Below, in pieces: positions 3,526-49,315 of a DNA stretch of 64,000 nucleotides; within the stretch, counting starts at the first letter, position 1, and each line of letters starts with the position of its first letter. The stretch spans positions 1-64,000 of the forward strand of contig CAWCKW010000006.1 of the NCBI GenBank assembly GCA_963796285.1. The letters are read 5' to 3'. The notes beneath the pieces were generated by a model that saw only the letters and a program-made list of their open reading frames with translations, made no database searches and had not been told where the DNA came from. Made by a program: the position numbers and the translations under genes. The stretch is from Nitrospirota bacterium. GTDB taxonomy: Bacteria; Nitrospirota; UBA9217.

Positions 3526-3600
3526 GATTGCGGAATGCCGATTGCCGATTGCGGAATGATCGAGACAAAACCTTTCAATCCGAAATCCGCAATCCGAAAT
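3526..3600. repeat. Inverted pair of heptamer arrays at the ddl/ftsQ junction
   Basis: GATTGCG GAATGCC GATTGCC GATTGCG, a spacer, then CAATCCG AAATCCG CAATCCG. Confidence 0.85.
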
Positions 3601-9131: not shown

Positions 9132-10467
9132 TCAGAGCCCCTTCACTGCTTCCTTGAACTGTCTCCCGCGGTCCTCGAAATCCCTGAACATGTCAAAGCT
9201 CGCGCACGCGGGCGACAGGAGCACGACGTCACCGCGGGCGGCACGGGTCGACGCGAGCCGGACCGCCTCCTGCAGCGACGCTGCGAGCACCGTCTCCGTT
9301 GCCGTACCGAGGACCTTCGCCATCTTGTCCGCAGCCTTGCCGATCAGGACCAGGAGCTTGACCTTGCGCTTGAACAGGTCGTAGAGCGGGCTGAAATCGC
9401 TTCCCTTGTCCAGGCCCCCGGCGATCAGGATAACGGGCTGGGTGAACCCCTCCACCGATTTGATGACTGCGCCGACATTCGTGCCTTTCGAGTCATTGAT
9501 ATAGCTCACGCCGTCTTTGGTTCGCACGAATTCAAGCCGGTGTTCAAGGCCGGGGAACTCCTGCAGCACCGCGGCCACCGACCGTACATCGGCGCCCGCC
9601 AGGATGGACAGTGCTGTTGCCGCAAGGGCGTTTTCGAGGTTATGCACACCATTGATCTTTAGTTCGTTAACGGCAATAACACGACGTCCGTTGAACATGA
9701 GGTGTCCATCAAGCACGCACGCGCCGGGGTTGAATCTGAGCTGCCGTGAAAAAGGAATGACCGTGGCGGCCGTGCGCCTGGTGTAGGACTTTACGATGGG
9801 ATCATCGAAATTCAGGACCAGATAATCTTCGTGTTGCTGGTTCATGAAGATCCGCGCCTTGGCTTCTCCATATTCCTCAAGATCTGGCATACCGGTCGAG
9901 ATGGTCCTGGGTCACGTTCAGGATCGTCGCGATCCGCGGCCTGAAGGTCTCGATGTCCTCAAGCTGGAAACTTGAAAGCTCGGCAACGATCCAGTCTTTT
10001 CCCGTCAGCTGCGAGACCTCTTCGGTGAGGGCGTTCCCGATATTACCTGCGACCAGCACGTTCTTCTTCGCCTTCGCGAGCATCAGCCCCACGAGGGTCG
10101 TGACCGTTGACTTGCCGTTCGTGCCCGTAATGCCGATGTACGGCGCATCAGAGAGCAGCCACGCAAGTTCGAGCTCGCTGATCACCTTGACGCCGCGCCG
10201 CTGTGCCTGCAGGACCGGCGCGATCTTGGGCACACCGGGGCTGAGCACGATGAGGTCGGCCTCGACGAAGATCCGTTCCGGATGTCCGCCCGCCTCAACA
10301 GCGATGCCGCTGCCGAGAGACGTTGTCGCCGCAGTCAGCTGGTCCAGCGGCTTCTTGTCCGTCACCGTCACGAGCGCGCCGAGCGCATGGAGCGCACGCG
10401 CAGCCGCGGCGCCGCTGCGCGCCAGACCGACGACCGTTACCTTTTTGCCCCTAAAATCCGGCTTCAC
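9132..10467 (-). CDS. murD: MurD ligase (one frameshift near 9885)
   Basis: ORFs 9877-10467 (GLARSG, GTNGKST, ELSSFQL, DHLDRY) and 9132-9890 (HRLE, NDSKGTN, SPACASFD) join if one base is removed. Confidence 0.94.
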
Positions 10468-10493
10468 AAGACCTCCGACATCAACACCTTTTT

Positions 10494-10672
10494 GCCACGC
10501 CCTGCACTCGCGCTCGCACTCGTAAACGCTGGGTGCAGGCAGAGATCACAGAGGGCACAGAGAAAAAGAGAAAAAAAGAAACTGAAAAATTTGGTTCATC
10601 TTGTCCAAGATCTTCTCTTTCCCTTACTTTCGTGTTCACGCTTTCCTCTGTGCTCTCTGTGACCTCAGTGGT
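10494..10672. repeat. Inverted nonamer-array element with a nested 42-bp insert at the mraY/murD junction
   Basis: GCCAC[insert]AGAGATCACAGAGGGCACAGAG ... CTCTGTGCTCTCTGTGACCTCAGTGGT. Confidence 0.85.
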
Positions 10673-10691
10673 AAATAGCTTTTTTCTCTTT

Positions 10692-11774
10692 TCATCTTAA
10701 CTTCAACGACCCGATCGAGATCAGCGCAAGGATGATCCCGATGATCCAGAAGCGAACGATGACCTTCGACTCCGGCCATCCGATCTGTTCAAAGTGATGG
10801 TGGATCGGCGCCATCTTGAAGATACGCTTGCCCGTCAGCTTATACGACGCCACCTGCATGATCACCGAGAAGGTCTCCATCACAAAAATGCCGCCCACGA
10901 TGACAAGGATCAGTTCGTGCTTCGTCACCACGGCCAGCGTGCCGAGCGCGCCGCCGAGCGACAGCGACCCCACGTCCCCCATGAACACCTCTGCCGGGTG
11001 CGTGTTGTACCACAGGAATCCGAGGCTTGCGCCGAGCATGGCGCCGCAAAAGATGGCGAGCTCGCCGCTCCCGGAGATGTAGAGGATCTTCAGATAGTCC
11101 GCGATGATCTTGTTCCCGCCGAGGTATACGATCACCGCATTCGCTGTGGCTGCGATGCCCACGAGACCGATGGCCAGTCCGTCCAGGCCGTCGGTGAGGT
11201 TCACGGCGTTCGACGAACCCACGATGACCACGGCAACAAAGGGGACGTAGAACCAGCCCAGGTCGAGGAATAAACTCTTCATGAACGGCACGGAAAGGAA
11301 CGTCGCCTCGTGGTCGCCGGAAAATTTATAGAGATATACGCCGATCGCAAGCGACGCCGCGATCTGGAGTCCGAACTTCTGAAATGCCCGCAGGCCGGTT
11401 GAATGCTTCTTCACCACCTTGAGGTAGTCGTCCCAGAACCCGATACCGCCGAAGGCAAGCGTGGCGAAGAGCACCACCCATACATACTTGTTCGTGAGGT
11501 CCGACCATAACAGGACGGAGGTCGCGAGGGAGGCAATGATCAGCAAACCGCCCATCGTCGGCGTTCCCTGCTTGGTAAGATGGGTCTGGGGGCCGTCGAC
11601 CCGGACCTGCTGACCGACCTTGAGCCTCCGCAGCCAGGCGATCATGGACGGCCCCAGCAGGAAGCTCGCGAGCAGCGCGGTCAATACCGCCCCTGCGCTC
11701 CGGAAGGTAATGTACCGGAAAACGTTAAAACCCGAGAACGCGTCACGCAGGGGATACAAAAGATGATAGAGCAT
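10692..11774 (-). CDS. mraY: Phospho-N-acetylmuramoyl-pentapeptide transferase
   Basis: Motifs [28 protein letters not shown] and APIHHHFE. Confidence 0.98.
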
Positions 11775-13142
11775 TAAAACTCCTCCAGGATCTTTTCCAT
11801 TTTCATGCCGCGGGACCCTTTGATCAGCACGGCATCTCCCGGCTGAGACAGCTTTGTGAGCAGAGCGGCGGCCTCGGCCTGCGAACCCGCCTCAAAGACC
11901 CGGTCCTTCGACATGCCGGCATCGATCGCCCCTGCTCCCACCTGTTTCGCGAGCGGCCCCAACAGTGATCACCAGGTCCACGCCGAGCCGCGCCGCAGTC
12001 GCGCCGATTGCGCGATGCGCATCGACGGTGACCGCCCCCAGCTCCAGCATATCGCCAAGCACGGCTATTGCCTTTCCTCCTGATCTCAGCGAGACCAGTG
12101 TTTCGAGCGCCGCTTCCATCGAAGCAGGGTTCGCATTATAACAATCGGCAAGCACGGTCCTTCCGTTGACCTGCCTGAGCTCCGAACGCATGGCAACCGG
12201 TATAAAATCATTGAGGCCTTCCTTCACGGCATCGATGGACATGCCCACCGCGAGAGCGGCCCCGGCGGCGGCCAGGGCATTATAGATATTGTGTTTCCCG
12301 ACGGCCCGCAGCCGCACGCTCACCGTGGAGCCGTTTGACCCGATCATGAATTCCGTGAAGTCCCTTTCCGGCCGGATTTCCCAAGCGCGCACATCGGATT
12401 TCTTGTCGATGCCGAAAGAAAGGACCCGTCCGTTGTACTTCTTTTTCAGCACTTCGAAGTAGTGATCATCGGCATTCAGCACCGCCGTACCGCCGGGCTT
12501 CAGGTGGTCGAACAGCTCTCCCTTTGCCTGCGCCACCCTGTCCATGCTCTTGAGAAACTCGAGATGTGCAGGACCGATGTTGGTGATCACCCCGACATCG
12601 GGGCCGATGAGCCGGGCGAGCAGATCGATCTCCCCCATCGCGCTCATGCCCATTTCCACGACCGCGGCCGTATGGTCCGCATTGAGCTTCAGGAGCGTGA
12701 GCGGCACGCCGATATGGTTGTTCAGGTTCCCCTCGTTCTTGAGCACCGGGCCTTTTTGCTTCAGGATGCCCGCGAGCATCTCCTTGGTCGTGGTCTTGCC
12801 GTTCGAGCCGGTAATGCCCACCACGGGTATCCCAAAATTCCTGCGATGCATGAAGGCCATCTCCTGGAGTGCGGAGAGCGTATCTTCCACGGGCACGATA
12901 TTCCGCAGCCCGCCGAGACTGGAGAACCTGTTCGAAAGCGCCGTCCGATCGACCAGCGCACCCCAAGCCCCTCGTTTCATCACCTCGGGAACAAAATCAT
13001 GGCCATCGAAACGGTCGCCCTTGATCGCCACGAACAGCTCATTCGCGCGAATGGTCCGGGAGTCGATGGAAACTCCCTTGATCTCCCCCCTCGTAATTTT
13101 CTTCAAGGTCTCCTTCAACAGGTTTTTTTCAGATTCGTTCAT
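11774..13142 (-). CDS. murF: MurF ligase (frameshift near 11960; start approximate)
   Basis: Motifs [28 protein letters not shown] and GDMLELG; the C-terminal KGSRGMKME is in a second frame. Confidence 0.93.
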
Positions 13143-13187
13143 GATCCGTGATACGGAATGCAGCAACAGGAAGACGGTATTTCGTAT

Positions 13188-14745
13188 TCATGCCGACTTC
13201 CGGTTCCTGACCTCAATCTCCTGACTCAAGCGTTTCCGTATCTCCTCCCGCGCGACCTCCCGATCATCAAAGTGCATTTTCTTCTCCCCGATGATCTGGT
13301 AATCTTCATGGCCCTTGCCGGCAAGCACAACCACATCACCAGGCCTCGCCAGAGCGATGGCAACGGCCACGGCTTCATGCCGGTCAGGTATGACGTAGTA
13401 TGGTTTTCTTCCGCGAGCGCGCTGTATCGCATCGTCCTGAGCTGCGATCTTGATGCCGCCTTCCACCAGTCCCTGTTCAATTTCGCGGATAATGCTCAAG
13501 GGCTCTTCGGTCCTCGGGTTGTCGGACGTGATGATCACGACATCGCTCCCCTTGATCGCGGCTGTACCCATTTTCGAACGCTTCGTCCTGTCCCGGTCGC
13601 CGCCGCAGCCGAAGACGGTGATGATCCGCTTTGCCGTGATCTCCCGCACTGCCTCAAGGAGCTTCGTGATCGCGTCTTCGGTATGGGCGTAGTCCACCAC
13701 CACGCCGTACGGTTGGCCTTCATCCACTTTCTCCATCCGGCCGGGCACGGCCTTCATGTTCCTGAGACCGCGTGCGATCTGGTCGCTGTTGATGCCAAGC
13801 GCCGTGCCGAGCCCGATCGCCAGCAGGATATTGTAGATATTGTGCCTGCCGACGAGCGGCGACTCGACAGGGATCGTTCCCGCGGGCGAGGCTGCGTCAA
13901 ACGTCAATCCATGGATGCCGTGGCGGATCGTTCCCGCCGGCCGCACGTTCGCAAGCTCTGAAAAACCGGTCGTGATGACCCGGGCGCGGGTCTTCCTGAC
14001 GATCTCGGCGCCGCGCGCGTCATCAATATTGACGACCGCCCAGGCCTCCGGGGATAGTCCAGTGAACAGCAGCAGCTTGGCCTGAAAGTAGGCATCCATG
14101 CTTTCATGAAAATCAAGGTGGTCCTGGGTAAGGTTCGTAAACCCCGCCGCTGCAAACTTGCATCCCGCGGTCCTGCCAAGCGTCAGTGCGTGCGACGAAA
14201 CCTCCATGACGCAGTGCTCCGCACCGAGCCCCACCATATCCGACAACAGCCGCTGCAGCTCGAGAGATTCGGGCGTGGTGTTCGGCGCGGGATACACCGC
14301 GTCGCCCACGCGGTAGTCGATCGTACCGATGAGGCCGGTCGTGTGCCCGGCGGCTTCGATGATGGATTTCAATCAAATAAGTGGTCGTGGTCTTGCCGTT
14401 CGTGCCCGTAATGCCGACGAGTTTAAGCCTCTGCGACGGATGGCCGAAGAACGCATTCGCCAGGAGGGCGAGCGCCCTGCGCGAGTCATCAACGATGATC
14501 AGCGGCGTGTCGGCAGGGACTGGCGGTCCCTCCTGTTTTTCAGCGACTATTGCCGTTGCGCCCTGCTGTATTGCCTGCGAAATAAACTGATGGCCGTCCG
14601 AGTGAAATCCCCGCACGGCCACGAACAGAGAGCCCGGCTTCACCTTCCGGGAATCATGGGCGATGTCTTGTACCTCCCGGTCCAACCAGCCCGGAGGAAG
14701 CGTTGTCCTGTTTTCCAGCGCGATCAGAAGGTCGCCGAGTTTCAT
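13188..14745 (-). CDS. murE: MurE ligase (frameshift near 14370)
   Basis: Motifs DSRKV, TGTNGKTTT, MEVSSH, DYAHT, DNPR and AGKGHE across two ORFs. DNPR indicates meso-DAP specificity. Confidence 0.95.
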
Positions 14746-16477
14746 CTTCCCACCAGGAGCATCCTGCCTCCCATGTCGTCCGGAGCCACCTGCAGGTACG
14801 CGAGGCTCTGTTCCGCCACCGCCTTGAAGACCGGCCCGGCCACGCTGCCGCCGTAGTGGACGGCGCCTTCCGGGGTGTCAACCATAACAAGGATCACGAG
14901 CTTCGGGGAGTTGGCCGGAACGAACCCAACGAAGGAGCTGACGTAATCCTTCTGCGAATACTTGCCGGTCCTCTGGTCGATCTTCTGCGCCGTGCCGGTC
15001 TTTCCCGCCGCTGTGTATCCCGCGGGCCGCGCCTTCTGGCCCGTGCCGGTCTCGACGACCCGCTGAAGCATCTTGTTCACCTTGGCGCAGGTCTCCTCGG
15101 TGATCACGCGGCCCACGGCCTGGGGCCGGAACTTTTTCCCTTCACCGCCGTCGTGGTCGACGATCTCCGAGACGATGTAGGGCTTCATGAGCATGCCGCC
15201 GTTTGCGAGAGCGCAGTACGCGGAGGCCATCTGGATCGGCGTTACCCCGATCTCCTGGCCGATGGCGATGGAGCCGATGGATACGCCGGACCAGAGATGC
15301 TGGTCCTTGAGCTGGCCGGGGATCTCTCCGGGGATGTCCACGCCGGTCTTCTTTCCGAAGCCGAAGGCGGTGATGTACTTGGCAAAGCGCTCCTTCCCGA
15401 GCCGCAGTGCCACCTGTGATGGTGCCGACGTTGCTTGACTCGGCGATCACGTCCGTGAAGGTCAGCACGCCGTTTTCGTGGGCGTCCTTGATCACCCGGT
15501 CGGCCAGATGAATTTCGCCTGCCGAGCAGTCGATCCGCTCGAGCGGATGCACAACCCGTTCCTCAAGCGCCGCTGAAGCAAGGAAGGGCTTGAAGATCGA
15601 ACCGGGCTCGAAGGCATCGGTCACCGCACGGTTCCGCCACTCGGCAGGTTTCGAGCGCTGAGGTTCATTGGGATTGAATGGCTGTTTGCCGTTTGCGGCC
15701 GACCGCACCGACAGGGCGAGCACTTCGCCCGTTTGCGGGTTCATGACCAGACAGACGCCGCCCTTTGCGCGCGAACTCGCGAGCGCCACGTCGAGCTCCT
15801 TCTCGGCGATATGCTGGATCACTTCGTCGATCGTGAGGAGGAGGTCATGGCCCGGCTTTGGCAGTTTGTACTGGAACCCCGGTCCGCCCGGGAAGACCGT
15901 TCTGCCCATGGCGTCCTTCTCCGCGATCACCCAGCCGTTCATGCCCCGGAGCGTTTTGTCGTAGGCGAGTTCCAGGCCCTCGAGGCCTTCGTTGTCCACA
16001 CCAAGAAATCCGAGCACAGGCCCGGCGAGGGTCTTTTTGGGATAGAATCGTTTGGCTTCGAGCCGGATCCCGATTTCCTTGTTGCCGAGCTCTCTGATCT
16101 TCTCGGCCCTTCCCGGCTCCACCTTTCGGCTGAGCCAGACAAACTGCTTGTTTCCCGCGAGCCGTTGTTCCAGACCGCGCCGGTCTTCCCGCAGGATCCG
16201 GGACAGCTGCAGCGCAACCTGGCGAGGATTGTCGATCCCTGACGGCACCCCGTAGACCGAATCCACATCGAGGCTCACGGCAAGCTCACGCCCCATGCGG
16301 TCGTAAATGGTGCCCCGCTTGGGATCGAGCTTCACGACGCGCTCCTGCTGCCGTTCGGCGCGGACGGAAAGCTCCGCCCGTTGATAGACCTGGAGGTACA
16401 CGAGCCTCAGTGCCACACAGCGCGAAGCCCATACCCATCAGGAGCAATACTGCGAGTATCCTCCCCCGTCTTTCCAT
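14742..16477 (-). CDS. ftsI: Penicillin-binding protein FtsI/PBP3 (frameshifts near 16410 and 15415)
   Basis: N-terminal TM helix, RGTIYDR, EPGSIFK (SxxK), SSN (SxN) and KTGTAQK. Confidence 0.94.
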
Positions 16478-16636
16478 CAATCGGCCGTCCTCACACCGTG
16501 TGTCCGTGTTCCGGCGAATGATTCCATTTGTGCCGGAACGGAAAAAACTTCAAATTTCAAGAAAGGGCTCCAAACAATATCCAAACTGCAAATCTTGCTT
16601 GTCCAGTCAGCGGTATTCGATCCTGGTTTTTGAGAT

Positions 16637-16996
16637 TTATTTCTCATTTGGGACCTGGATTTTGGAGGTTGTCCTATCCTTTTTCCGTTTCACCATCACG
16701 ACATTCTCCTTCGCCGGCCTGACCATACCCAGACGCTTGATCGCGATCTCCTCGATACGTGCCGGAGAGGAGAGACTCGACGCCTCGATCAGAAGCGACC
16801 GGTTCGCACGCTCAAGCTCACTCTTCTCGCGTTGAAGAACCTCGATCTGGTAGCCGAGTTGGACGATCTTCACCTTCCCGCCCACATACAGAAGCAGGCC
16901 GGAGATGATCAGGAGCGCGAAAAGAACCCGGCGAAAGTTGTCACGCCTGCTCCGCCCGAATACAAAAGAACCTATTTCACCTGATCGAGCATTCAT
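16637..16996 (-). CDS. ftsL: Cell division protein FtsL
   Basis: Single TM helix, coiled coil and LSSPARIEEIA..LGM. Lies between rsmH and ftsI. Confidence 0.88.
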   Translation of the reverse strand: MNARSGEIGSFVFGRSRRDNFRRVLFALLIISGLLLYVGGKVKIVQLGYQIEVLQREKSELERANRSLLIEASSLSSPARIEEIAIKRLGMVRPAKENVVMVKRKKDRTTSKIQVPNEK

Positions 16997-17102
16997 GCCC
17001 AAAAACTCCAAGATCCAAATCTCACATCTCAAACAAATTACAAATCATAAAATTTCAACGGGCGGACTTTTGTTTAAAGTGTGAAAATCAGAATCTTCCC
17101 GT

Positions 17103-18089
17103 TCATATCTTCTCCGCTGCCCTGAGCTTTGCGCTCCTCGACGCGGGGTTCTTTCTTTCCTCTTCCTCCCCAGGCACAATCGGCCTGGTGGTAAGGATCC
17201 TGAGGACCGGTTTCCTGCCGCAGGCACAGACCGGAAGTCGGGGCGGGCACACGCACCCTTTTGCCTCCTTCACAAAGGTCTGCTTCACCATCCGGTCTTC
17301 CAGGGAGTGGAACGTTATCACGGCGATCCTTCCGCCGGACTTCAGCATCGGGAGGATGCGATCAAGCCCTTCGCGGAGGGACCCCAGCTCATCGTTGACC
17401 GCGATCCTCAGGGCCTGAAACGTCAGCGTGGCGGGGTGAATGCGCCGTGGAGGGTAAGGGGGGAATACACTTGAAACGATCTCTGCAAGCTGAACCGTGC
17501 TCGTTATGGGTCCCCGGACCCTCGCTTTCTCAATTGCCCGAGCTATGGAGCCGGCCCTTCTCTCCTCCCCGTATTCACGCAGGATCTTCACGAGCTCTTC
17601 ATGGGGGAGTCTGTTTACCAGGTCGGCGGCAGTCAGCGGCCTGCTCATGTCCATGCGCATGTCGAGCGGGCCGTCCAGCATGAAGCTGAAGCCGCGCTCC
17701 GGGGTCTTGAGATGAAACCACGACATGCCGAGGTCGAGCAGGACCCCGTCGACAGCCTCATATCCCAGCCCGGAGAGGACCTCGGGCAGGTCACGGTAAT
17801 TTGCCCTCCTGATGATAACGCGATCGCCGTAAGAAGCGAGGTTTTTGCTGCACCGCTCCACCGCGTCCGCATCCTGGTCCATGCCGATCAACACGCCATC
17901 GGGCGCGGAGCGCTTCAGGATCTCCGATGCATGGCCGCCGGCCCCAAGCGTCCCGTCAACATACAGGCCGCCGGCTTTTGGCGCGAGCAAATCAACGGCC
18001 TCATGAAGCAGGACGGGAACGTGTGCCAATTGCGGATTTGGGATCTCGGATTGCGGATTATTATTTATCGAATGTTTTTTGTTTCTCAT
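17103..18089 (-). CDS. rsmH: 16S rRNA m4C1402 methyltransferase
   Basis: Motifs HVPVLL, DGTLGAGGH, PLDMRM, FQALRIAVN, FHSLEDR and SRSAKLR. Confidence 0.97.
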   Translation of the reverse strand: MRNKKHSINNNPQSEIPNPQLAHVPVLLHEAVDLLAPKAGGLYVDGTLGAGGHASEILKRSAPDGVLIGMDQDADAVERCSKNLASYGDRVIIRRANYRDLPEVLSGLGYEAVDGVLLDLGMSWFHLKTPERGFSFMLDGPLDMRMDMSRPLTAADLVNRLPHEELVKILREYGEERRAGSIARAIEKARVRGPITSTVQLAEIVSSVFPPYPPRRIHPATLTFQALRIAVNDELGSLREGLDRILPMLKSGGRIAVITFHSLEDRMVKQTFVKEAKGCVCPPRLPVCACGRKPVLRILTTRPIVPGEEEERKNPASRSAKLRAAEKI

Positions 18090-18119
18090 TCTGCAATCCG
18101 CAATCTAAAATCCGCAATT
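18028..18119. repeat. Inverted pair of heptamer arrays at the STAS/rsmH junction
   Basis: AATTGCG GATTTGG GATCTCG GATTGCG ... CATTCTG CAATCCG CAATCTA AAATCCG. Confidence 0.85.
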
Positions 18120-18121
18120 CT

Positions 18122-18481
18122 TCAGAGTCCCAGCGGCAGGTTCGTTTCGGGCTTACCGCCGCCAAAGCTCTTCGCCGCCAGCTGCGCCGTGTCAAAGACC
18201 TGAAATTTCTCGAGCACGCCGGTGGTGCGAAAGATGTTCTTGATGTAGTCCGACATCCCCGCGAGCCGGATATCGCCACCGAACGACTGCATCCGTTTCT
18301 GCTCTTCAACCAGCACCGAAAGGACCGTGAAATTGACATGCTCCACGGACTCGAAGTTCAGGATCAGGCCGTATATATCGCCCTTGATCAACTGGCCGAT
18401 GACGCGGTTGATCTCCGCCATCTTCGCCGAGTCGATCTCGCCTTCCAGGTTCATTTGAAATACTTTAAGTTTCGGCTCCAT
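18122..18481 (-). CDS. STAS-domain (anti-anti-sigma-like) protein
   Basis: 119 aa with the STAS-like pattern LEGEID...LILNFESVEHV...GGDIRLAG...IFRTTGV..F. Starts 1 nt after the mraZ stop. Confidence 0.8.
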   Translation of the reverse strand: MEPKLKVFQMNLEGEIDSAKMAEINRVIGQLIKGDIYGLILNFESVEHVNFTVLSVLVEEQKRMQSFGGDIRLAGMSDYIKNIFRTTGVLEKFQVFDTAQLAAKSFGGGKPETNLPLGL

Positions 18482-18482
18482 G

Positions 18483-18917
18483 CTATAAGCCCAATGCGGC
18501 GAGCGCCTCGCCGATCTTGTCGCCGTTCTGAGAATTTCGTGCCTCCCACGCCTTGGCGTCCCATATCTCTATTTTGTCGATGATCCCGACGAGCATCACG
18601 TTCTTCGCGATCCCCGCATGTTCACGAAGGGCCGGCGGTATCAGGACGCGTCCCTGCTTATCAAGTTCGCATTCCGTTGCAGAGGCGAGCAGGAACCGCA
18701 TGAAGTCCTTTACCTCTTTTTTCATAGTGGGAAGGTTCCTGATCTTGTCCTCAAGCTTTTCCCATTCCTCGAGCGGATAAACAGTGAGGCACTTATCATA
18801 GTCCATGGCGAGCACGAGCCTGCCGTCATAACGGTCCGCGATGATGTCGCGGAACCTCGACGGAACGCTCACCCTCCCCTTGGAATCAACCGTATGTTCA
18901 AAGCTGCCTCGAAACAT
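18483..18917 (-). CDS. mraZ: Transcriptional regulator MraZ
   Basis: MFRGSFEHTVDSKGRV and LDKQGRVLIP. Heads the dcw cluster. Confidence 0.97.
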   Translation of the reverse strand: MFRGSFEHTVDSKGRVSVPSRFRDIIADRYDGRLVLAMDYDKCLTVYPLEEWEKLEDKIRNLPTMKKEVKDFMRFLLASATECELDKQGRVLIPPALREHAGIAKNVMLVGIIDKIEIWDAKAWEARNSQNGDKIGEALAALGL

Positions 18918-18934
18918 TGGCCTCCCCGGTTCTA

Positions 18935-18959
18935 CCCACTGCTTCCCACTTTATACCAC
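18935..18959 (-). promoter_or_regulatory. MraZ autoregulatory binding boxes
   Basis: The minus strand reads GTGGTATAAA-GTGGGAAGCA-GTGGG: three GTGG(G) boxes at a 10-bp period just upstream of mraZ, matching known MraZ sites. Confidence 0.85.
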
Positions 18960-18970
18960 CTGCTGGGGAA

Positions 18971-18999
18971 AGTATATAATTCATGCGGGTCGATGTCAA
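18971..18999 (-). promoter_or_regulatory. Sigma70 promoter of the dcw operon
   Basis: TTGACA-17bp-TATACT on the minus strand. Confidence 0.8.
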
Positions 19000-19173
19000 G
19001 GAAAATATTAATATTTTGAGATGTTACAGGGTGGGTGGGATGCCGGGATAAAATCTGTTTTTCGCGTGACAACGGGGGATGAAAAAGGTACTATCAATCA
19101 CTGCGCAGCAGGAATCGGCTGCCAGGAGTTGACAAAAAATTTTGTGTCTATTCTGACCACTGACTCCTTCTAT

Positions 19174-19473
19174 ATGATGACCGAAAATTTCATTACCTTC
19201 GACGACGAGCACATCAAAAGGGAGAAGGCAAAAGCCCGTGAACTGCGCAATTCCCAGTGGTGGAAACGGAAGCGCTCTTCCGGTATCTGCTATTATTGCG
19301 GAGGCAAGTTCAAACCAACGGATTTGACCATGGACCATCTGATCCCGGTCGTGCGCGGCGGGAAGTCCGTGCAGGGGAACCTTGTGCCTGCCTGCAAAGA
19401 GTGCAATAGCAAAAAAAAATATCTTCTGCCAACTGAGTGGGAAGAGTATCTCGGCTCTCTCAATAAAGAATGA
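19174..19473 (+). CDS. Small HNH endonuclease family protein
   Basis: CYYC..MDHLIPVVRGGKS..NLVPACKECN. The likely start is MMTENF. Confidence 0.88.
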   Translation: MMTENFITFDDEHIKREKAKARELRNSQWWKRKRSSGICYYCGGKFKPTDLTMDHLIPVVRGGKSVQGNLVPACKECNSKKKYLLPTEWEEYLGSLNKE

Positions 19474-19615
19474 TCCAATCCCCGAACAACAATATACAAA
19501 CAGTGCGATTGCCTTTCTTGCATCTTCAGCATTATCATGATGACCAGGTCAAAACATACCGTTGTTGTTCTTCACTAACCAGGGATTCTGAAAAGAGCGC
19601 ATGTCCACCTAATCT

Positions 19616-21493
19616 CTAACGGGATCCCCTCTTCCTCTTTTCGAGCGCCACCATAAGGAGGGACAGCGCGGCCGGGGTAATACCGGAAATGCGCGATGCC
19701 TGGCCAAGCGAGACCGGCTGCACCTGCTTGAGCTTTTGCTTCACTTCGCTGCCAAGACCGGTCACTGCGTCAAAGTCCATGTCCGCGGGGATGCCCTTCT
19801 GTTCCAGTGATGCAAAGCGCTCCACCTGCTGGAGCTGGCGCTGGATATAGCCCTCGTACTTCACCTGGATCTCCACCTGTTCAGCTGCTGCTGCATCAAG
19901 CGGTGTGTCAGGCGGGCTGATCTTTTCAATATCCCCATATCCCAGCTCCGGTCGCTTAAGGAGCTGATCGAGCGATGCTTCTCCCGGAAGTTCCGTGGAG
20001 CTCTGTTGTGCCAGCACGGCATTGACCTCCGGAGTGGACTTGACCCAGGTTTTTTTAAGCCTCACAGTTTCACGCTCGATGCTTTCTTTTTTCTCAAGGA
20101 ATTGTTTGTGCACTTCCCCTGACACGAGGCCAAGCTCATATCCCTTGTCCCGGAGCCTCAGATCCGCGTTGTCCTCGCGGAGGAGGAGTCGATACTCTGC
20201 CCGGGAAGTGAACATGCGATAGGGTTCGTTCGTACCACGGGTCACAAGGTCATCGATCAACACGCCGATGTACGCCTCGGCGCGCGAGAGGATGAGCGAT
20301 TGGCGGTGCTGGATCTTGAGAGCGGCATTGATGCCGGCCATCAGTCCCTGGGCAGCGGCCTCCTCGTATCCCGATGTACCATTGATCTGTCCGGCAAAGT
20401 AGAGCCCGCTCAGCTTTTTTGTTTCGAGCGTATGTTGGATCTGGGTTGGAGGAGCAAAATCGTACTCGATGGCATAGGCAGGCCGCATGATCTCGACCTG
20501 CTCAAGTCCTGCGATGGAACGGTACATCTGGACCTGAACATCGTACGGCAGGCTCGTGGATACACCATTGGCGTAATATTCCTCGGTATCGAGCCCCTCG
20601 GGCTCAAGGAAAACCTGATGTCGTTCACGCTCCGAAAATCTTTTAACCTTATCTTCGATCGAGGGACAATAGCGTGGCCCGATGCCCTTGATCATTCCGG
20701 CATAAAGTGGGGAACGATCAAGGTTATTTATAATTATATCATGGGTTATGGTATTGGTATACGTGAGAAAACAGGGCATTTGTGGGAGCGGATGGCTTTT
20801 TTCAGTAAAAGAGAAGAATGGCGCCGGATCATCACCATGCTGCATTTTCATACGTGAAAAATCGATCGTTTTTCCGTTCAACCGCGCGGGTGTTCCGGTC
20901 TTGAGCCTTCCGATATCGAAGCCGAGTTCCCTCAAGCAATCCGAAAGTCCAAGAGACGGGAACTCCCCTGCCCTGCCCGAAGGATAATGCACCAGGCCGA
21001 TGTGGATCAGGCCCTTCAGGAACGTGCCTGTTGTCACGATCACCGCAGATGACAGGTAGTGCACACCGATTGTGGTCTCGACCCCGATGACCCTGTTGTC
21101 TTCAATGAGGAGCTTCTCGACTGTCCCCTGCTTCACATCCAGGTCCGGCTGCTTTTCAACCGCTTCCTTCATGGCGAGCCGGTACCGCTGCTTGTCGGCC
21201 TGGGCGCGCGTGCCGTGAACAGCCGGGCCCTTGCTCCGGTTCAGCGTGCGGAACTGGATACCTGTCCGGTCAATGATCTTCGCCATCTCGCCGCCAAGCG
21301 CGTCGATCTCCTTCACGAGGTGCCCCTTGGCCAGCCCGCCGATGGCAGGATTGCAGGACATGAGCGCGATGCTGTCGAGGTTCATGGTAAGCATAAGCGT
21401 GGAACAGCCCATGCGCGCGGAAGCGAGCGCGGCCTCGCACCCTGCATGGCCGGCCCCGATCACGATGACGTCGTATGTATTATTTAAAGACAT
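19616..21493 (-). CDS. mnmG: tRNA modification enzyme MnmG (GidA)
   Basis: Motifs GAGHAGCEA, SCNPAIGG, GPRYCPSIEDK, GQINGTSGYEEAAAQG and YRMFTSRAE. Confidence 0.98.
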   Translation of the reverse strand: MSLNNTYDVIVIGAGHAGCEAALASARMGCSTLMLTMNLDSIALMSCNPAIGGLAKGHLVKEIDALGGEMAKIIDRTGIQFRTLNRSKGPAVHGTRAQADKQRYRLAMKEAVEKQPDLDVKQGTVEKLLIEDNRVIGVETTIGVHYLSSAVIVTTGTFLKGLIHIGLVHYPSGRAGEFPSLGLSDCLRELGFDIGRLKTGTPARLNGKTIDFSRMKMQHGDDPAPFFSFTEKSHPLPQMPCFLTYTNTITHDIIINNLDRSPLYAGMIKGIGPRYCPSIEDKVKRFSERERHQVFLEPEGLDTEEYYANGVSTSLPYDVQVQMYRSIAGLEQVEIMRPAYAIEYDFAPPTQIQHTLETKKLSGLYFAGQINGTSGYEEAAAQGLMAGINAALKIQHRQSLILSRAEAYIGVLIDDLVTRGTNEPYRMFTSRAEYRLLLREDNADLRLRDKGYELGLVSGEVHKQFLEKKESIERETVRLKKTWVKSTPEVNAVLAQQSSTELPGEASLDQLLKRPELGYGDIEKISPPDTPLDAAAAEQVEIQVKYEGYIQRQLQQVERFASLEQKGIPADMDFDAVTGLGSEVKQKLKQVQPVSLGQASRISGITPAALSLLMVALEKRKRGSR

Positions 21494-21514
21494 GAATCAA
21501 CTCCAAACATTTTA

Positions 21515-21773
21515 ACCGCGGAGGCGTACCCTGCACTCGCGCTGAGCACTCGTTAACGCTGGGCACAGGCGGAGACACGGAGAAATGCATATTGAAATAA
21601 TTAGAGGCCGTATTTTTAATTGCCGTTTTCCTTAAGATCGTCATTCCTGCGAAGGCAGGAATCCAGTCTTTTCACAAGTCTCTGGATGCCGGATCAAGTC
21701 CGTTATGATGAAAAAGATAGTATAAATACAGACTCTCATTAGGATGTTCTCTGCGCCTTCGCGTCTCTGCGGT
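21515..21773. repeat. Composite repeat element at the mnmE/mnmG junction
   Basis: Nonamer inverted arms, a nested ~43-bp insert and an internal GTCATTCCTGCGAAGGCAGGAATCCAG repeat. Confidence 0.85.
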
Positions 21774-21818
21774 TAAATTCGATTTATTGAGAGATCATCA
21801 TGTATTCGTATTATCAAT

Positions 21819-23189: not shown

Positions 23190-23629
23190 GGCGGCATAGT
23201 ACCATAAACAGGGGAGGGGCGATAAGGAAATTTTGAACAGATGATGTAAGGCCCTTGATGATGCGGGGACTCAGGGTATCGCGTCGTCTATTATAAATAT
23301 GTACATCCGGAATATTTTTTATGATAAAATACACTCACTGCTAAGGCATTGTTAAAAATTCTGTGAAATCCGGAGAGGCAACGAATTAAACCACAGAGAT
23401 CACTGAGGAATGCTCGGGCAAAACCTGAACGCTGAGAATCTGATTTCTCAGTAAGATTCTCTGTTCCCTCTTAGGTTAAGAGATAAAAATAGAATCAAAT
23501 AGAGTTAGTAAGAAAAATATACCACGGGGGAGGAGGCCGCAGAGTCGTTTATTTCATATATTCACGATATTCTCTGTGCTCTCTGCGGTTAAATCTTGAC
23601 AATATGAATTCGCGGAAAAGGAAAAGATT

Positions 23630-32555: not shown

Positions 32556-33567
32556 TCATTCGTCAATATCCAGTTTTGTCTTGAACCGTTCCGATCCGGC
32601 GTTGATGCTTTCGAGCACATCACGCGCTGCCTGGCCGGTCAGCACACGCGGCCGGTACTGCACCCGGTAGTTGTTCACATCCAGCGGCACGGCTTCTACC
32701 CTCGCAAGGCTCTTGCCCTGAAACGTCAAAAGGAGTATCATGCTGGTGTTCGTGCGGTTGCTCTCTGACCCGAATACGAAGTTGCCGAGACTGTAGGCGA
32801 TGAGTCGGCCTTGGTACACCTCGAGCTCCTGCAGCACATGCGGATGGTGTCCGAGCACGAGGTCAGCGCCCCAGTCAATGGCCTTGCGGCCCAGCTCGAC
32901 CTGGTAGTCCTTGGCAGCGGTCATGAGTTCCGCTCCCCAGTGGAATGAGACCACGACCAGGTCCGCCGTGGGCCGTGCCTTTTCAATGTCGGACTTTCAC
33001 AAATTCCGCATACCCCGGCGCAGTGCCGGGCCTGCTTGCTGATGCGAAGAATTCGAGCGGAAAGGTGAGGGAATACGAGAGGAAGGCGATCGTCTTCCCC
33101 TTGATCTTCAGGACCGCCGGTGTGCGGGCGTCATCGAGGTCCATGCCTGCGCCGGTGTAGAGGATCTCGTGCTGGTCAAGGACCCCGAGGGTGTCTTTGA
33201 GCGCCAGCGGGCCGAAGTCCATCGAATGATTGTTCGCGAGCGAGACCACTCGGATGCCGGCATTCTTCAGCGCCAGTGCGGCGATCGGTCCGGCTCGGAG
33301 CGTGAACTTCTTGTTCTCCACAGCGGTGCCGCGGGTGGAGATCGAAGACTCAAGGTTGCCCACCACCACGTCTGCCCGGGAGAGAAACGGCATCACGTCG
33401 GTGAAAGGGTAGTCCGGGCCGAACTCCTTGAGAAATGGCTCGACCCTTCCGCCGAGCATCAGGTCGCCGACCGCGGCGATGGTGATCTCGTCCTGCACCG
33501 ACTGGTCAGCAGCAGCGGGGGAGACAACGGCAAGAAGAAGAGTGAACGTGACAACGAATATTTTCAT
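32556..33567 (-). CDS. CapA family metallophosphatase-fold protein (frameshift near 32990)
   Basis: Motifs VGDLML, NLE, LANNHSMDFG, HWG, GHHPHV and YSLGNF. Confidence 0.9.
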
Positions 33568-33649
33568 AACAGGTGATGTGGATATTAATCAACTCGCCGC
33601 CAAAAGGCAACAGGAAAAGGCGGTAAAACTAAGAGCACGGAGTGGGGCC

Positions 33650-34589
33650 ATGAAGAAATATTTAGTGACATTCATTACTATGATCGGCATTCTTCTCACG
33701 AACACCATGCCGGGCATCGCGAGCGGTTCGGTGGTCGTGGACCGGGTGGTCGCGGTGGTGAACAACGAGGTCATCACCCTGAGCGACCTTCAGCGCGAGG
33801 AGGCCTTGAAGAAACGCGACACGGTGCACGACGACCGGCTGGTCCTCGAGGACATGATCGATCGAAAGCTCCAGATGGCTGCCGCGAAGCGCGAGGGCGT
33901 GGATGTGACGGATAAAGAGCTTGAAGACGCCGTTGCCGATATCATGAAACGGAACAGCATGGACATGATGCAATTCAGCGCTGGCGCTGGCCAAGGAGGG
34001 GCTCACCCTCGAACAATACAAGGCAGAGCTCCGGGAGCAGATCACGCTTTCGCGCCTGTTCAATAAATACGTTCGCTCCAGCGTGAACGTGGACGAGGCG
34101 GAGGCCCGTGCGTTTTATCGGAACAACCCGAAAACGTTCTCCCTGCCTGAGGAGATCCGGGTGCGGCGGATCTTCCTGGCAGTGCCGGAGCAAGCTTCGC
34201 CTGACCAGGCCGCGGCAATCAAGGAAAAAGCGCAGTCCGTGTATGCACGCGTGCAAAAAGGCGAGGATTTCATTCATCTCGTCCGCGAGGCCTCGCAGGG
34301 CGAGACTGCTTCACAGGACGGCGATCTGGGGTTCATGCAGCGGGAGGACGCCCTTCCCGAGATCGTGGAGGCGGCTCGCGCGCTCAAGCCGGGTGAAAGT
34401 TCAAGCCCGTTTCGTTGCGCCGGCGGCTACAATATCATCAAACTTGAAGAGGTGAGAACGCCGGTCAAGCCTTTTGAAAAGGTGAAGGACGAGATCATGA
34501 AGACCCTCTACGAACAGAAATTGGAGAATACCTACCGAATCTGGCTCCAGGCGCTCCGGGGCGATTCGCATATCGAGAACCGATTGTAA
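33650..34589 (+). CDS. SurA-like chaperone/PPIase (frameshift near 33985)
   Basis: Signal peptide, VDRVVAVVNNEVITLS and a parvulin domain with GDLGF. Confidence 0.85.
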
Positions 34590-34698
34590 GCAAGCCGCAA
34601 AGGGCTGAGAGCATGGCGCAGAGCGTCTGGTGTAACTAATTCTGTTTTGCTGTCGCTCCGTGAGTTGTGCTCTCTGCCCTTTGCGCTCTGCGCGATGC
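34590..34698. repeat. Inverted pair of heptamer arrays at the surA-like/rlmI junction
   Basis: GCAAAGG GCTGAGA GCATGGC GCAGAGC ... TCTCTGC CCTTTGC GCTCTGC GCGATGC. Confidence 0.8.
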
Positions 34699-35873: not shown

Positions 35874-35906
35874 ATCAAATTCACCACACAATGGAATAGA
35901 ATTTTT

Positions 35907-36008
35907 ACCGCGAAGACGCGATGAACGCGAAGGCAGTCAACACCAACGGGATTTTAGCCTTCATTCAGACCTGTAAGAAATTCTTCGCGACCTTTGCGCC
36001 ATGGCGGT
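35907..36008. repeat. Inverted array pair after rlmI
   Basis: ACCGCGAAGACGCGATGAACGCGAAG ... CTTCGCGACCTTTGCGCCATGGCGGT. Confidence 0.75.
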
Positions 36009-36111
36009 TACTAAGGTTTTTATTCCGGACTTGTTCGCTCGGATTAGGTCTGTAGAGAAGAGATTTAGCTTGACGAACCAGCGTTCCCTGTGTTAAAAAG
36101 TATCCGTTCCC

Positions 36112-47160: not shown

Positions 47161-47370
47161 TGCATCGCCCGACATTGTATTGTCAAGCGGGCTGACAATG
47201 ATGTCTCCCTCATTAAACTATGGCTCCATGAGCAATGCGGGAACGAGGAACTGCTCGTCGGGAACGACTTGTTCCGCTCGCTCAAAACAATCAATAAGGA
47301 CGTCATCACCCTCTATATCAGGCTACAATCACAGTAATTTTGCCAGCATCAATAAACTGCAATGAACGTC

Positions 47371-49315
47371 TCATGTTGTCTGCGTCCTTGTATAGTTCAG
47401 CATCCCGCCTGCCAGAAGAATGTCGCGCTGCCGCATGCTCAATGCGAATTTCAGCTGAACAGTCTTGCCGTTCGTCGTGTCTTTGAGCATCAGGTCTGTG
47501 CCCTCTCTCGAGCGCAGCCTTGATCTTGCCGATCTCGATCGTATCATTGGCTCCGATCGCATCATAATCCGCTTCGTTCGCGAAGGTGAGCGGCAGAATG
47601 CCGAAGTTGATGAGGTTCGCAGCATGGATGCGCTCGAACGATTTCGCGATCACCGCCTTGACACCCAGGTACATGGGACAGATGGCCGCATGCTCGCGGC
47701 TCGAACCCTGACCGTAGCTCGCACCGGCGATCACAATATTGTGCTTCCCGGCCTTTTTGTTCTCGAGCGCCTTTTTCGGGAATGTCGCATCCACACCCTC
47801 GAACACGAACTCTGCGTATTTCGGAATGTTCGAGCGGTACTTCAGTCTCGATCCAGCGGGCATGATGTGGTCCGTGGTGATCTTGTCGCCGACCTTGATC
47901 GCCACCACGCCCTGGATGATATCAGGAAGCGGTTCTGCTGCAGGCGGATCGCCGATGTTCGGGCCCCGGTAGACGGTCACCGACAGCGGGTCTTTGGCCG
48001 GAGGCAGGATCATCGAGTCGTCGATCCAGAATTGCTCGGGCATGGCGATCTCGGGATAGGGGATGCCGAGATCACGGGGGTCCATGATCCCGCCGGTGAG
48101 CGCGGCTGCAACAGCGGACTCGGGACTGGCGAGATAGACCTTCGCGCTTTTGGTTCCGGAGCGGCCTTCAAAGTTCCTGTTGCTCGTACGGACCGAGACC
48201 GCATCGGTCTTCGGGGCCTGGCCGCTCCCGATGCAGAAACCGCAGGTCGATTCGAGGATCCTTGCTCCCGCGGAGACGATATCGGCCATGGCGCCGTTCT
48301 TCGCGATCATCTCGAGCACCTGGCGGGAGCCGGGCGCTACGCCGAAGCTTACATCCGGGAAAGACCCTTCTTCCTTTCAACATCGAGGCCACGATCATCA
48401 GGTCACGATATGATGAGTTGGTGCAGGAGCCGACCATGACCTGGTCTACTTTCGTTCCCGCCAGTTCCTTCACCGTGCCGATATTGTCCGGGGAGTGCGG
48501 CTTTGCCATCATCGGTTCGATCGATGCCAAGGTCGAGGTCGATCACTTTTTCGTATGTCGCGTCAGCATCAGCAGCGAGTGCGGTCCACTCGGATTCTCT
48601 TCTTTGCGCCCTGAGGAATGAACGCGTGATCTCATCGCTCGGAAAGACTGATGTGGTCACGCCGAGCTCCGCGCCCATGTTCGTGATGGTCGCGCGCTCG
48701 GGCACGGAAAGCGTTTTGATCCCGTCGCCGCCATATTCGATCACGGTGCCGACGTTCCCCTTGGTCGTGAGCATCTTGAGAATCGTGAGGATGACGTCCT
48801 TGGCCGACACCCAGGGCCGAAGCTTTCCGGTCAGGTTTATCTTCACCACCTTGGGACAGGTGAGGTAGAAGGGGCCGCCGCCCATGGCCACGGCCACGTC
48901 GAGTCCGCCCGCGCCGATGGCGATCATGCCGATGCCGCCGCCCGTGGGCGTATGGGAATCGGATCCGAGCAGCGTCCTGCCGGGCCTGCCGAAACGCTCA
49001 AGGTGCACCTGATGGCAGATGCCATTCCCTGCTTTTGAATAGTGGATCCCGTATTTTGATGCAACGGTCTGCAGATACCGGTGGTCATCGGCATTCTCGA
49101 ACCCGTCCTGGAGCGTGTTGTGGTCCACGTAGCTCACCGAGAGCTCGGTCTTGACCCGCGGCACGTCCATGGCCTCGAACTGCAGGTAGGTCATGGTGCC
49201 GGTCGCGTCCTGGGTCAGCGTCTGGTCGATCCTGATCGCGATCTCAGTCCCCGGCTTCAAGCTTTCCCGTGACCAGGTGGGCTCCCAATATCTTATAAAC
49301 GAGATTTTTACCCAT
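47371..49315 (-). CDS. Aconitate hydratase, short type (several frameshifts)
   Basis: Motifs DQTLTQDATG, DHN, GICHQ, DSHT, GSCTN, CGFCIG, TTDHI and GSSREHAA. Confidence 0.93.

Follow-up and report, generated by a model that had tools for sequence, protein, structure and literature searches.

A 43-nt hairpin in the intergenic repeats of Nitrospirota looks like an undescribed miniature mobile element

Classical bacterial miniature inverted-repeat transposable elements (MITEs), such as Correia, RUP and Nezha, are 100-400 nt long, and the DDE transposases that move them leave target duplications at their flanks. IS200/IS605 insertion sequences are not known to make target duplications. Some insertion sequences target other repeats, with IS1397 and ISKpn1 found in the loops of repetitive extragenic palindromes (REPs) and IS1111-family elements found in REPs. 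According to passages of two published accounts (PMC6006769, PMC8266576), REPs are 21-65 nt long, and both IS200/IS605 transposases and the enzymes associated with REPs bind to small hairpins formed by single-stranded DNA; a tetranucleotide at the foot of the hairpin sets the cut sites by base-pairing to the flanking target as well as to the last tetranucleotide of the element. Here we describe a hairpin of ~43 nt that occurs twice in 64,000 nt of Nitrospirota DNA (contig CAWCKW010000006.1 of assembly GCA_963796285.1, positions 1 to 64,000; hereafter the window), each time within an arm of a different intergenic inverted repeat. Its features suggest a miniature mobile element not described before.

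The hairpin shares features with each of these systems. As the passages describe REPs, their paired form (REPINs) and the REP-associated tyrosine transposases (RAYTs), likeness lies in the short, extragenic, non-coding hairpin, in high copy number within a lineage, in largely vertical inheritance, in movement that is thought to occur in trans as single-stranded DNA, and in a short stretch beside the stem, which in the element is a proposed guide. REPs differ in having, by the same passages, GTAG (GT[AG]G) 5' of the hairpin foot, which the element is without. The REPIN unit is an inverted doublet, whereas copies of the element are mostly single, and those that are paired stand in tandem or hundreds of bases apart around ordinary genes. 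The element also has a sharply defined insertion site inside other repeats, and no RAYT gene was seen within 2 kb of ~72 of its loci. With IS200/IS605 elements and their small derivatives it has in common hairpin ends, a fixed short target alongside, a single orientation, no visible target duplication and, as far as those passages go, a final tetranucleotide complementary to bases beside the hairpin foot. It differs from them in that one 43-nt hairpin would have to act as both ends, that no transposase of this kind was found in the open reading frames (ORFs) flanking its copies, and that a weak local test gave no sign of the bias in replication strand to be expected of such elements. IS1397, ISKpn1 and IS1111-family elements likewise land in another repeat family; they are kilobase-sized, autonomous and encode their own transposase, whereas the element is 43 nt long and non-coding. 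Bacterial MITEs are also small, non-autonomous and intergenic with inverted-repeat ends, for which the stem arms of the element could pass, but no target duplication is seen at the element. By analogy, it would work like a REP or a small IS200/IS605 derivative, yet it fails defining features of both.

The two window copies and the repeats that they interrupt

A sequence-only reading of the window had pointed out two similar copies of 42 and 43 nt, 11 kb apart, and both are present as claimed, with identical blocks of 15, 8 and 9 nt in common. The copies (A and B), their host repeats and a third repeat nested in host B are as follows.

10498..10539, + strand: copy A of the hairpin element, 42 nt, in the mraY-murD spacer, 31 nt ahead of the murD start (ORF on the minus strand)
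10483..10497, + strand: host A, outer left arm, up to and including the first half of a split 9-nt unit; part of a gapless 42-nt match after excision
10540..10566, + strand: host A, inner part of the left arm, with the remainder of the split unit and two CACAGAG-type units; recognized by arm pairing and the excision match
10642..10683, + strand: host A, uninterrupted right arm; recognized by arm pairing and the excision match
21527..21569, + strand: copy B of the hairpin element, 43 nt, in the mnmE-mnmG spacer, 34 nt upstream of the mnmG start
21510..21526, + strand: host B, outer left arm, with a TTTTAACC cap, a single 8-nt unit and the first bases of the unit that is split
21570..21585, + strand: host B, inner part of the left arm
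21747..21777, + strand: host B, uninterrupted right arm; recognized by the excision match
21640..21710, + strand: third small repeat, in the form of a hairpin that starts GTCATTCC and is nested between the two arms of host B

Both host repeats are intergenic inverted repeats whose arms consist of two or three tandem 8-9-nt units with TTT(A)ACC-like caps. Removal of the element was said to restore the interrupted arm, and it does so in both hosts. With 10498-10539 excised, the left arm aligns gaplessly over 42 nt with the reverse complement of 10642-10683 (25 nt unexcised), and excision of 21527-21569 gives a gapless match of 31 nt to 21747-21777 (16 nt unexcised). The points of interruption differ, as had also been stated: copy A splits the outermost 9-nt unit, and copy B lies within the second 8-nt unit. 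When the two copies are aligned as a pair, identity is confined to the element, with unrelated sequence on both sides. A segmental duplication was therefore ruled out as the origin of the window copies, and with it the prospect, raised in the sequence-only reading, that both arose from one duplication that included the flanks. An 18-nt core occurs twice in the window against 0.10 expected, and none of 100 shuffles reached two. No third copy was found in the window by blastn-short or with an nhmmer profile.

Each strand of copy A can fold into a hairpin (-10.9 and -10.2 kcal/mol; z -2.3 and -1.8). The variant copy B has T at its first base and C-A at alignment columns 47-48; its stem is kept on the minus strand only, through two G.T pairs, and is weak (-5.0 kcal/mol, z +0.8). 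The genes downstream of both copies are on the minus strand, with start codons 31-34 nt away.

A family with a preferred insertion motif

Species-representative genomes were scanned with the 12 and 7 fixed bases of the two stem halves separated by a gap of 13-17 nt, and the family sample is conditioned on these 19 fixed bases. The scan gave at least 120 loci (given below by L numbers) and at least 122 distinct matches. Among the 122 matches listed, 100 pass a simple family filter and five of the 22 rejects look like members by eye; the remaining 17 are unrelated, coding-like DNA of other phyla, as expected from the ~20 chance matches predicted for 19 fixed bases in the collection. The family thus has at least ~105 copies in at least 28 assemblies, and the possibility that only the two window copies exist, which the sequence-only reading had named, is disposed of. 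Nitrospirota, Nitrospirae or Nitrospiria is the label of 25 of the 28 assemblies, and one metagenome-assembled genome (MAG; contigs CAVUHW...) has at least 14 copies. At two loci the coding DNA is 85-87% identical to that of the window, which therefore comes from a relative of these MAGs. The other three assemblies are MAGs labelled Syntrophobacterales, Betaproteobacteria and Acidobacteriaceae (L007, L010, L043, L069), where the copies could reflect binning contamination by Nitrospirota contigs or genuine transfer.

Across the family the element lies in spacers and is 42-46 nt long. On the + strand of the window its consensus reads C/T, A/G, C, CCTGCAC, TCGCG and a variable loop of 5-9 nt in the 5' half, followed by CACTCG, TAA, N, CGCTGGG, Y, G/A and CAGG in the 3' half. 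Conservation outside the searched bases is 90-100% for CACTCG and 93-96% for TAA, against ~35-60% in the loop columns; the free positions are the loop and one further position. With Rfam 15 the window gave four tRNAs only at the gathering score and no match to the hairpin, and 20 family loci searched at E<=1 gave two weak matches, both unrelated to it. A blastn search of plasmid and phage collections with a 52-nt query gave no match. No paper describing the element was found among partial texts of the literature on Nitrospirota or Nitrospirae repeats and on strings of the element.

Target-site counts were made on 92 copies, after leaving out seven copies of one composite subfamily. Upstream of the element, position -2 is C in 61/92 and -1 is A in 55/92; downstream, +1 is C in 85/92, +2 a purine in 68/92, +3 G in 55/92 and +4 A in 61/92. 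The junction CA-element-C is found in 45/92 copies. The insertion motif is thus C-A, element, C-R-G-A in a single orientation or, read on the other strand, a position 3' of Y-G. Such counts dispose of random location, the other possibility that had been raised. The sequence-only reading took the nonamer repeats themselves to be the target; their units are indeed hit, but the real target is broader, being the short motif that those units carry. The same motif is found in GCGGAAT-, CAGGGGG- and CAATTTG-type units, in the loops of other hairpins and in the element itself. It stands in the middle of the 7-9-nt arm units, and the element therefore mostly comes to lie inside those arms.

When the flanks of 99 copies were joined, a short-tandem-repeat unit was restored in case after case, the split units being of the types CACAGAG, CGCGGAG, CACGAAG, CACGGAT, GCGGAAT, CAGGGGG, CAAGGGT and CAATTTG. 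The joined flanks are strongly periodic in 17/99 copies, and in 14 of these 17 the period is best recovered at a net offset of 0; a stricter initial periodicity filter qualified only 2/99. Since offset 0 is best, no target duplication is seen. Tabulation of the flanks, which had been proposed for target preference or target duplications, yielded a preferred short motif. A local unit-restoration statistic was also computed, with flanks swapped between copies as the null, and this null was too close to the data.

The element also occurs within itself and in arrays. At L105 (214-343) copies form a head-to-tail array in which one lies within the loop region of another, directly after GGGCA, and at L016 copies stand in two successive 7-nt units. 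One copy has a duplicated 3' half (L015, 3433-3498) and another a 9-nt insertion (L033, 3299-3349). The composite subfamily is a ~170-nt repeat that holds the hairpin with a diverged 3' end in seven copies (L006, L012, L014, L024, L040, L085, L111). This repeat has multiplied within one MAG to at least six copies, and an empty copy of it lies beside a filled one in L006 and L012. The sequence-only reading had proposed a tiny secondary mobile element that targets repeats, and the insertion pattern supports this proposal, mobility being deduced from sequence comparison. We consider it very probable that the hairpin is an inserted, site-specific mobile element.

Internal pairing and the candidate route of movement

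The element was originally placed at 10499-10540 and 21528-21570. The base before that start is C in most copies and T in 10 of the 11 copies with A rather than G at column 48. Over 100 copies this base (column 6) and column 48 form CG in 81, UA in 10, UG in 5 and other combinations in 4. None of 500 shuffles reached the covariation score, pairing is 91% against 37-47% in slid controls, and Fisher's test gives p = 2e-9, uncorrected for relatedness. As read from the junctions, counting the extra base as element restores the consensus C of the host unit in six informative cases (window copy B, L011, L042, L051, L052 and L072). True flank positions, examined in the same manner as a retargeting test, show no covariation with the element (p 0.2-0.8). 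Because the first base covaries internally, the flanks do not, and the host units are restored, we moved both boundaries one base to the left, to 10498-10539 and 21527-21569.

The first five bases of the element can pair with GGGTG near its 3' end, as an alternative to the long stem. The pair next to columns 6 and 48 is A:T in 33 copies, G.T in 20, C:G in 8, G:C once and unpaired in 37. The long stem is 93.7% paired, with its 5' arm fixed by the search pattern. Departures at the free columns of the 3' arm (C at column 47 in 39 copies, A at column 48 in 11, and a base other than G, mostly A by eye, at column 51 in 16) leave mismatches when the top strand is folded but G.T pairs when the bottom strand is, a hint that the bottom strand is the folded one.

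We favor, at a probability of roughly 0.6, the reading that the hairpin is a non-autonomous, single-hairpin mobile DNA of ~43 nt, widespread in Nitrospirota and moved as folded single-stranded DNA by an HUH enzyme. By analogy with described systems, it is probably a REP-like element moved in trans as single-stranded DNA. A tyrosine HUH enzyme, of the type known from IS200/IS605 or from REPs and encoded by a gene at another place in the genome, would cut and rejoin it, and the bottom-strand CACC beside the inner stem would pair, as a guide, with the last four nucleotides of the element, GGTG. Guide-type pairing is supported by covariation for the terminal bases, and none is seen with the flanking target. 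The HUH mechanism itself, taken as a separate claim, is put forward tentatively.

The search for an enzyme used 80 loci with 2-kb flanks, the loci covering 0.6-4.5 kb around the copies. Pfam was run on 290 of the 300 flanking ORFs at E<=1e-10 (the first 15 at 1e-5); the ten left out belong to L058 and L073, duplicates of L057 and L072. The sole transposase-like match among the flanking ORFs was one rve_3 domain, 1.3 kb from a copy. A recurrent transposase beside the copies was sought by all-against-all clustering of the 300 flanking ORFs and was rejected, the clusters being paralogues of kinases, response regulators and ABC ATPases only. The gene between two inverted copies in L057 was considered as a mobilizer and dropped; its translation resembles a housekeeping hydrolase and has no Pfam match at E<=1e-10.

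Several observations weigh against the favored reading. No Y1/HUH domain was found in the 290 ORFs searched within 2 kb of copies (~72 loci), nor among the 47 ORFs of the window, and the GTAG guide is absent from the consensus foot on either strand. In a weak local test of replication-strand bias, GC skew is positive at 35/63 loci (p 0.31). Relative to neighboring genes, 20 copies have the same orientation as both, 9 are opposite to both, 17 are mixed and 26/72 are unassignable; the 20 against 9, if anything, favors the top strand, contrary to a bottom-strand model. Within the proposed guide pairing, a G at column 7 meets a C at column 47 in only 1/21 copies, which is odd for a plain base pair, and the 5' arm of the long stem cannot show covariation because the search pattern fixed its bases. 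A looser local periodicity test was noisier, with offset 0 best in 17.5 of ~50 copies and still the mode. A clean pair of filled and empty orthologous spacers was sought between the window and L119, L053, L044 and L015, and none was found, as whole spacers differ. The relative at L119, with 87% coding identity, has a copy in its mnmE-mnmG spacer with a different loop and in a host repeat of different units, and three further relatives each carry a copy in a spacer that has none in the window, the spacers differing wholesale. Finally, copies of one genome differ in their loops and are conserved in their other parts, which could point to selection for a host function rather than to recent transposition.

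That last point leads to an account in which the hairpin serves mainly a function of the host, for example as a protein-binding site or as an RNA or DNA structural signal in spacers, and is kept by selection, its movement having ended after an old spread. Its uneven conservation, with CACTCG-TAA and the stems kept and the loops free, and the differing loops within single genomes would fit this account, as would the position of the window copies 31-34 nt upstream of starts and the copy in the corresponding mnmE-mnmG spacer of a relative. We regard it as quite unlikely, however; orientation to neighboring genes varies, copies are nested in one another and arrayed head to tail, no Rfam family matches, and the same 43 nt splitting many unrelated repeats at one motif would be left unexplained. 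A host function of the CACTCG-TAA part is possible in addition to insertion, not in its place. It is scarcely probable that the hairpin is a module of larger inverted-repeat elements and is copied only with them, in the manner of BIME or BOX modules. Some copies have indeed spread as passengers, since the seven composite copies have ~170 nt of flanks in common, and relatives have copies like B at other loci (L011, L042), identical to it in the variant bases and similar in the arms. This account is nevertheless largely refuted by host diversity, as the element occurs in at least eight unrelated unit types, in the loops of other hairpins and in itself; moreover, the arms are restored exactly on its removal, and many arms are without it.

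If the hairpin is both mobile and site-specific, the agent might still be of another kind, either a tyrosine or serine site-specific recombinase, as with integron integrases acting on folded attC, or a new class of enzyme. Insertion is precise, oriented and without target duplication, and the C common to both junctions makes the boundary ambiguous by 1 nt, as would be expected of a crossover core; the want of an HUH gene in the flanking ORFs and of a strand bias in local GC skew would fit as well. We nonetheless think such an agent unlikely. No recombinase recurs beside the copies, where the recurrent ORFs encode kinases, response regulators and ABC ATPases, a common core would span only 1-3 nt, and the pairing of the first base with an internal base fits guide-type recognition better. 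A further reading would make the element a minimal transposon substrate of a new kind, in which one 43-nt hairpin carries both ends and the guide and is maintained throughout the phylum by a single-copy HUH-like or new enzyme, the tandem-unit inverted repeats being either co-evolving landing pads or products of that machinery. We offer this reading as a speculation that is probably not correct.

Surrounding repeats, genes and meaning

The hairpin nested between the arms of host B (GTCATTCC...GGAATCC type) is itself dispersed, with an 89% match in L020 (3733-3870) and an 86% match in L025 (2139-2193), both in other MAGs. Elsewhere, hairpins related to this type have the 43-nt element within their loops (other genomes; L015, L025, L027, L061). 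Further intergenic inverted repeats, without the hairpin element, lie in the window at 2573-2642, 3526-3594, 18028-18119, 23390-23592, 34596-34685 and 35903-36010. Their arms are likewise built of tandem 7-9-nt units, including GGGTCA, GATTGCGGA, CACAGAG/CTCTGCGG, CGCAAAGGG and CGCGAAG; the architecture is alike and the unit sequences are unrelated.

Several conserved genes of the window appear split or truncated. These are murD (two ORFs), aconitase (two), a SurA-like protein (two) and a PGA_cap fragment, at 9132-10467, 47318-49260, 33428-34589 and 32556-32954, and they reflect either assembly indel errors or pseudogenes. At 1-2039 an open-ended ORF of 679 aa contains FtsZ domains, with the Tubulin/FtsZ domain starting at residue 320; its long N-terminal part may be read-through of an upstream gene.

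Given a candidate enzyme from these genomes, the mapped boundaries, target motif and covarying pair would make the mechanism directly testable with oligonucleotides. The element family and its host repeats are a likely source of assembly breaks and of spurious small ORFs, and together they account for much of the rapid spacer turnover in these Nitrospirota MAGs. If active, the element would rank with the smallest site-specific mobile DNAs on record, and would be a natural case of one repeat family colonizing another at base-pair precision.

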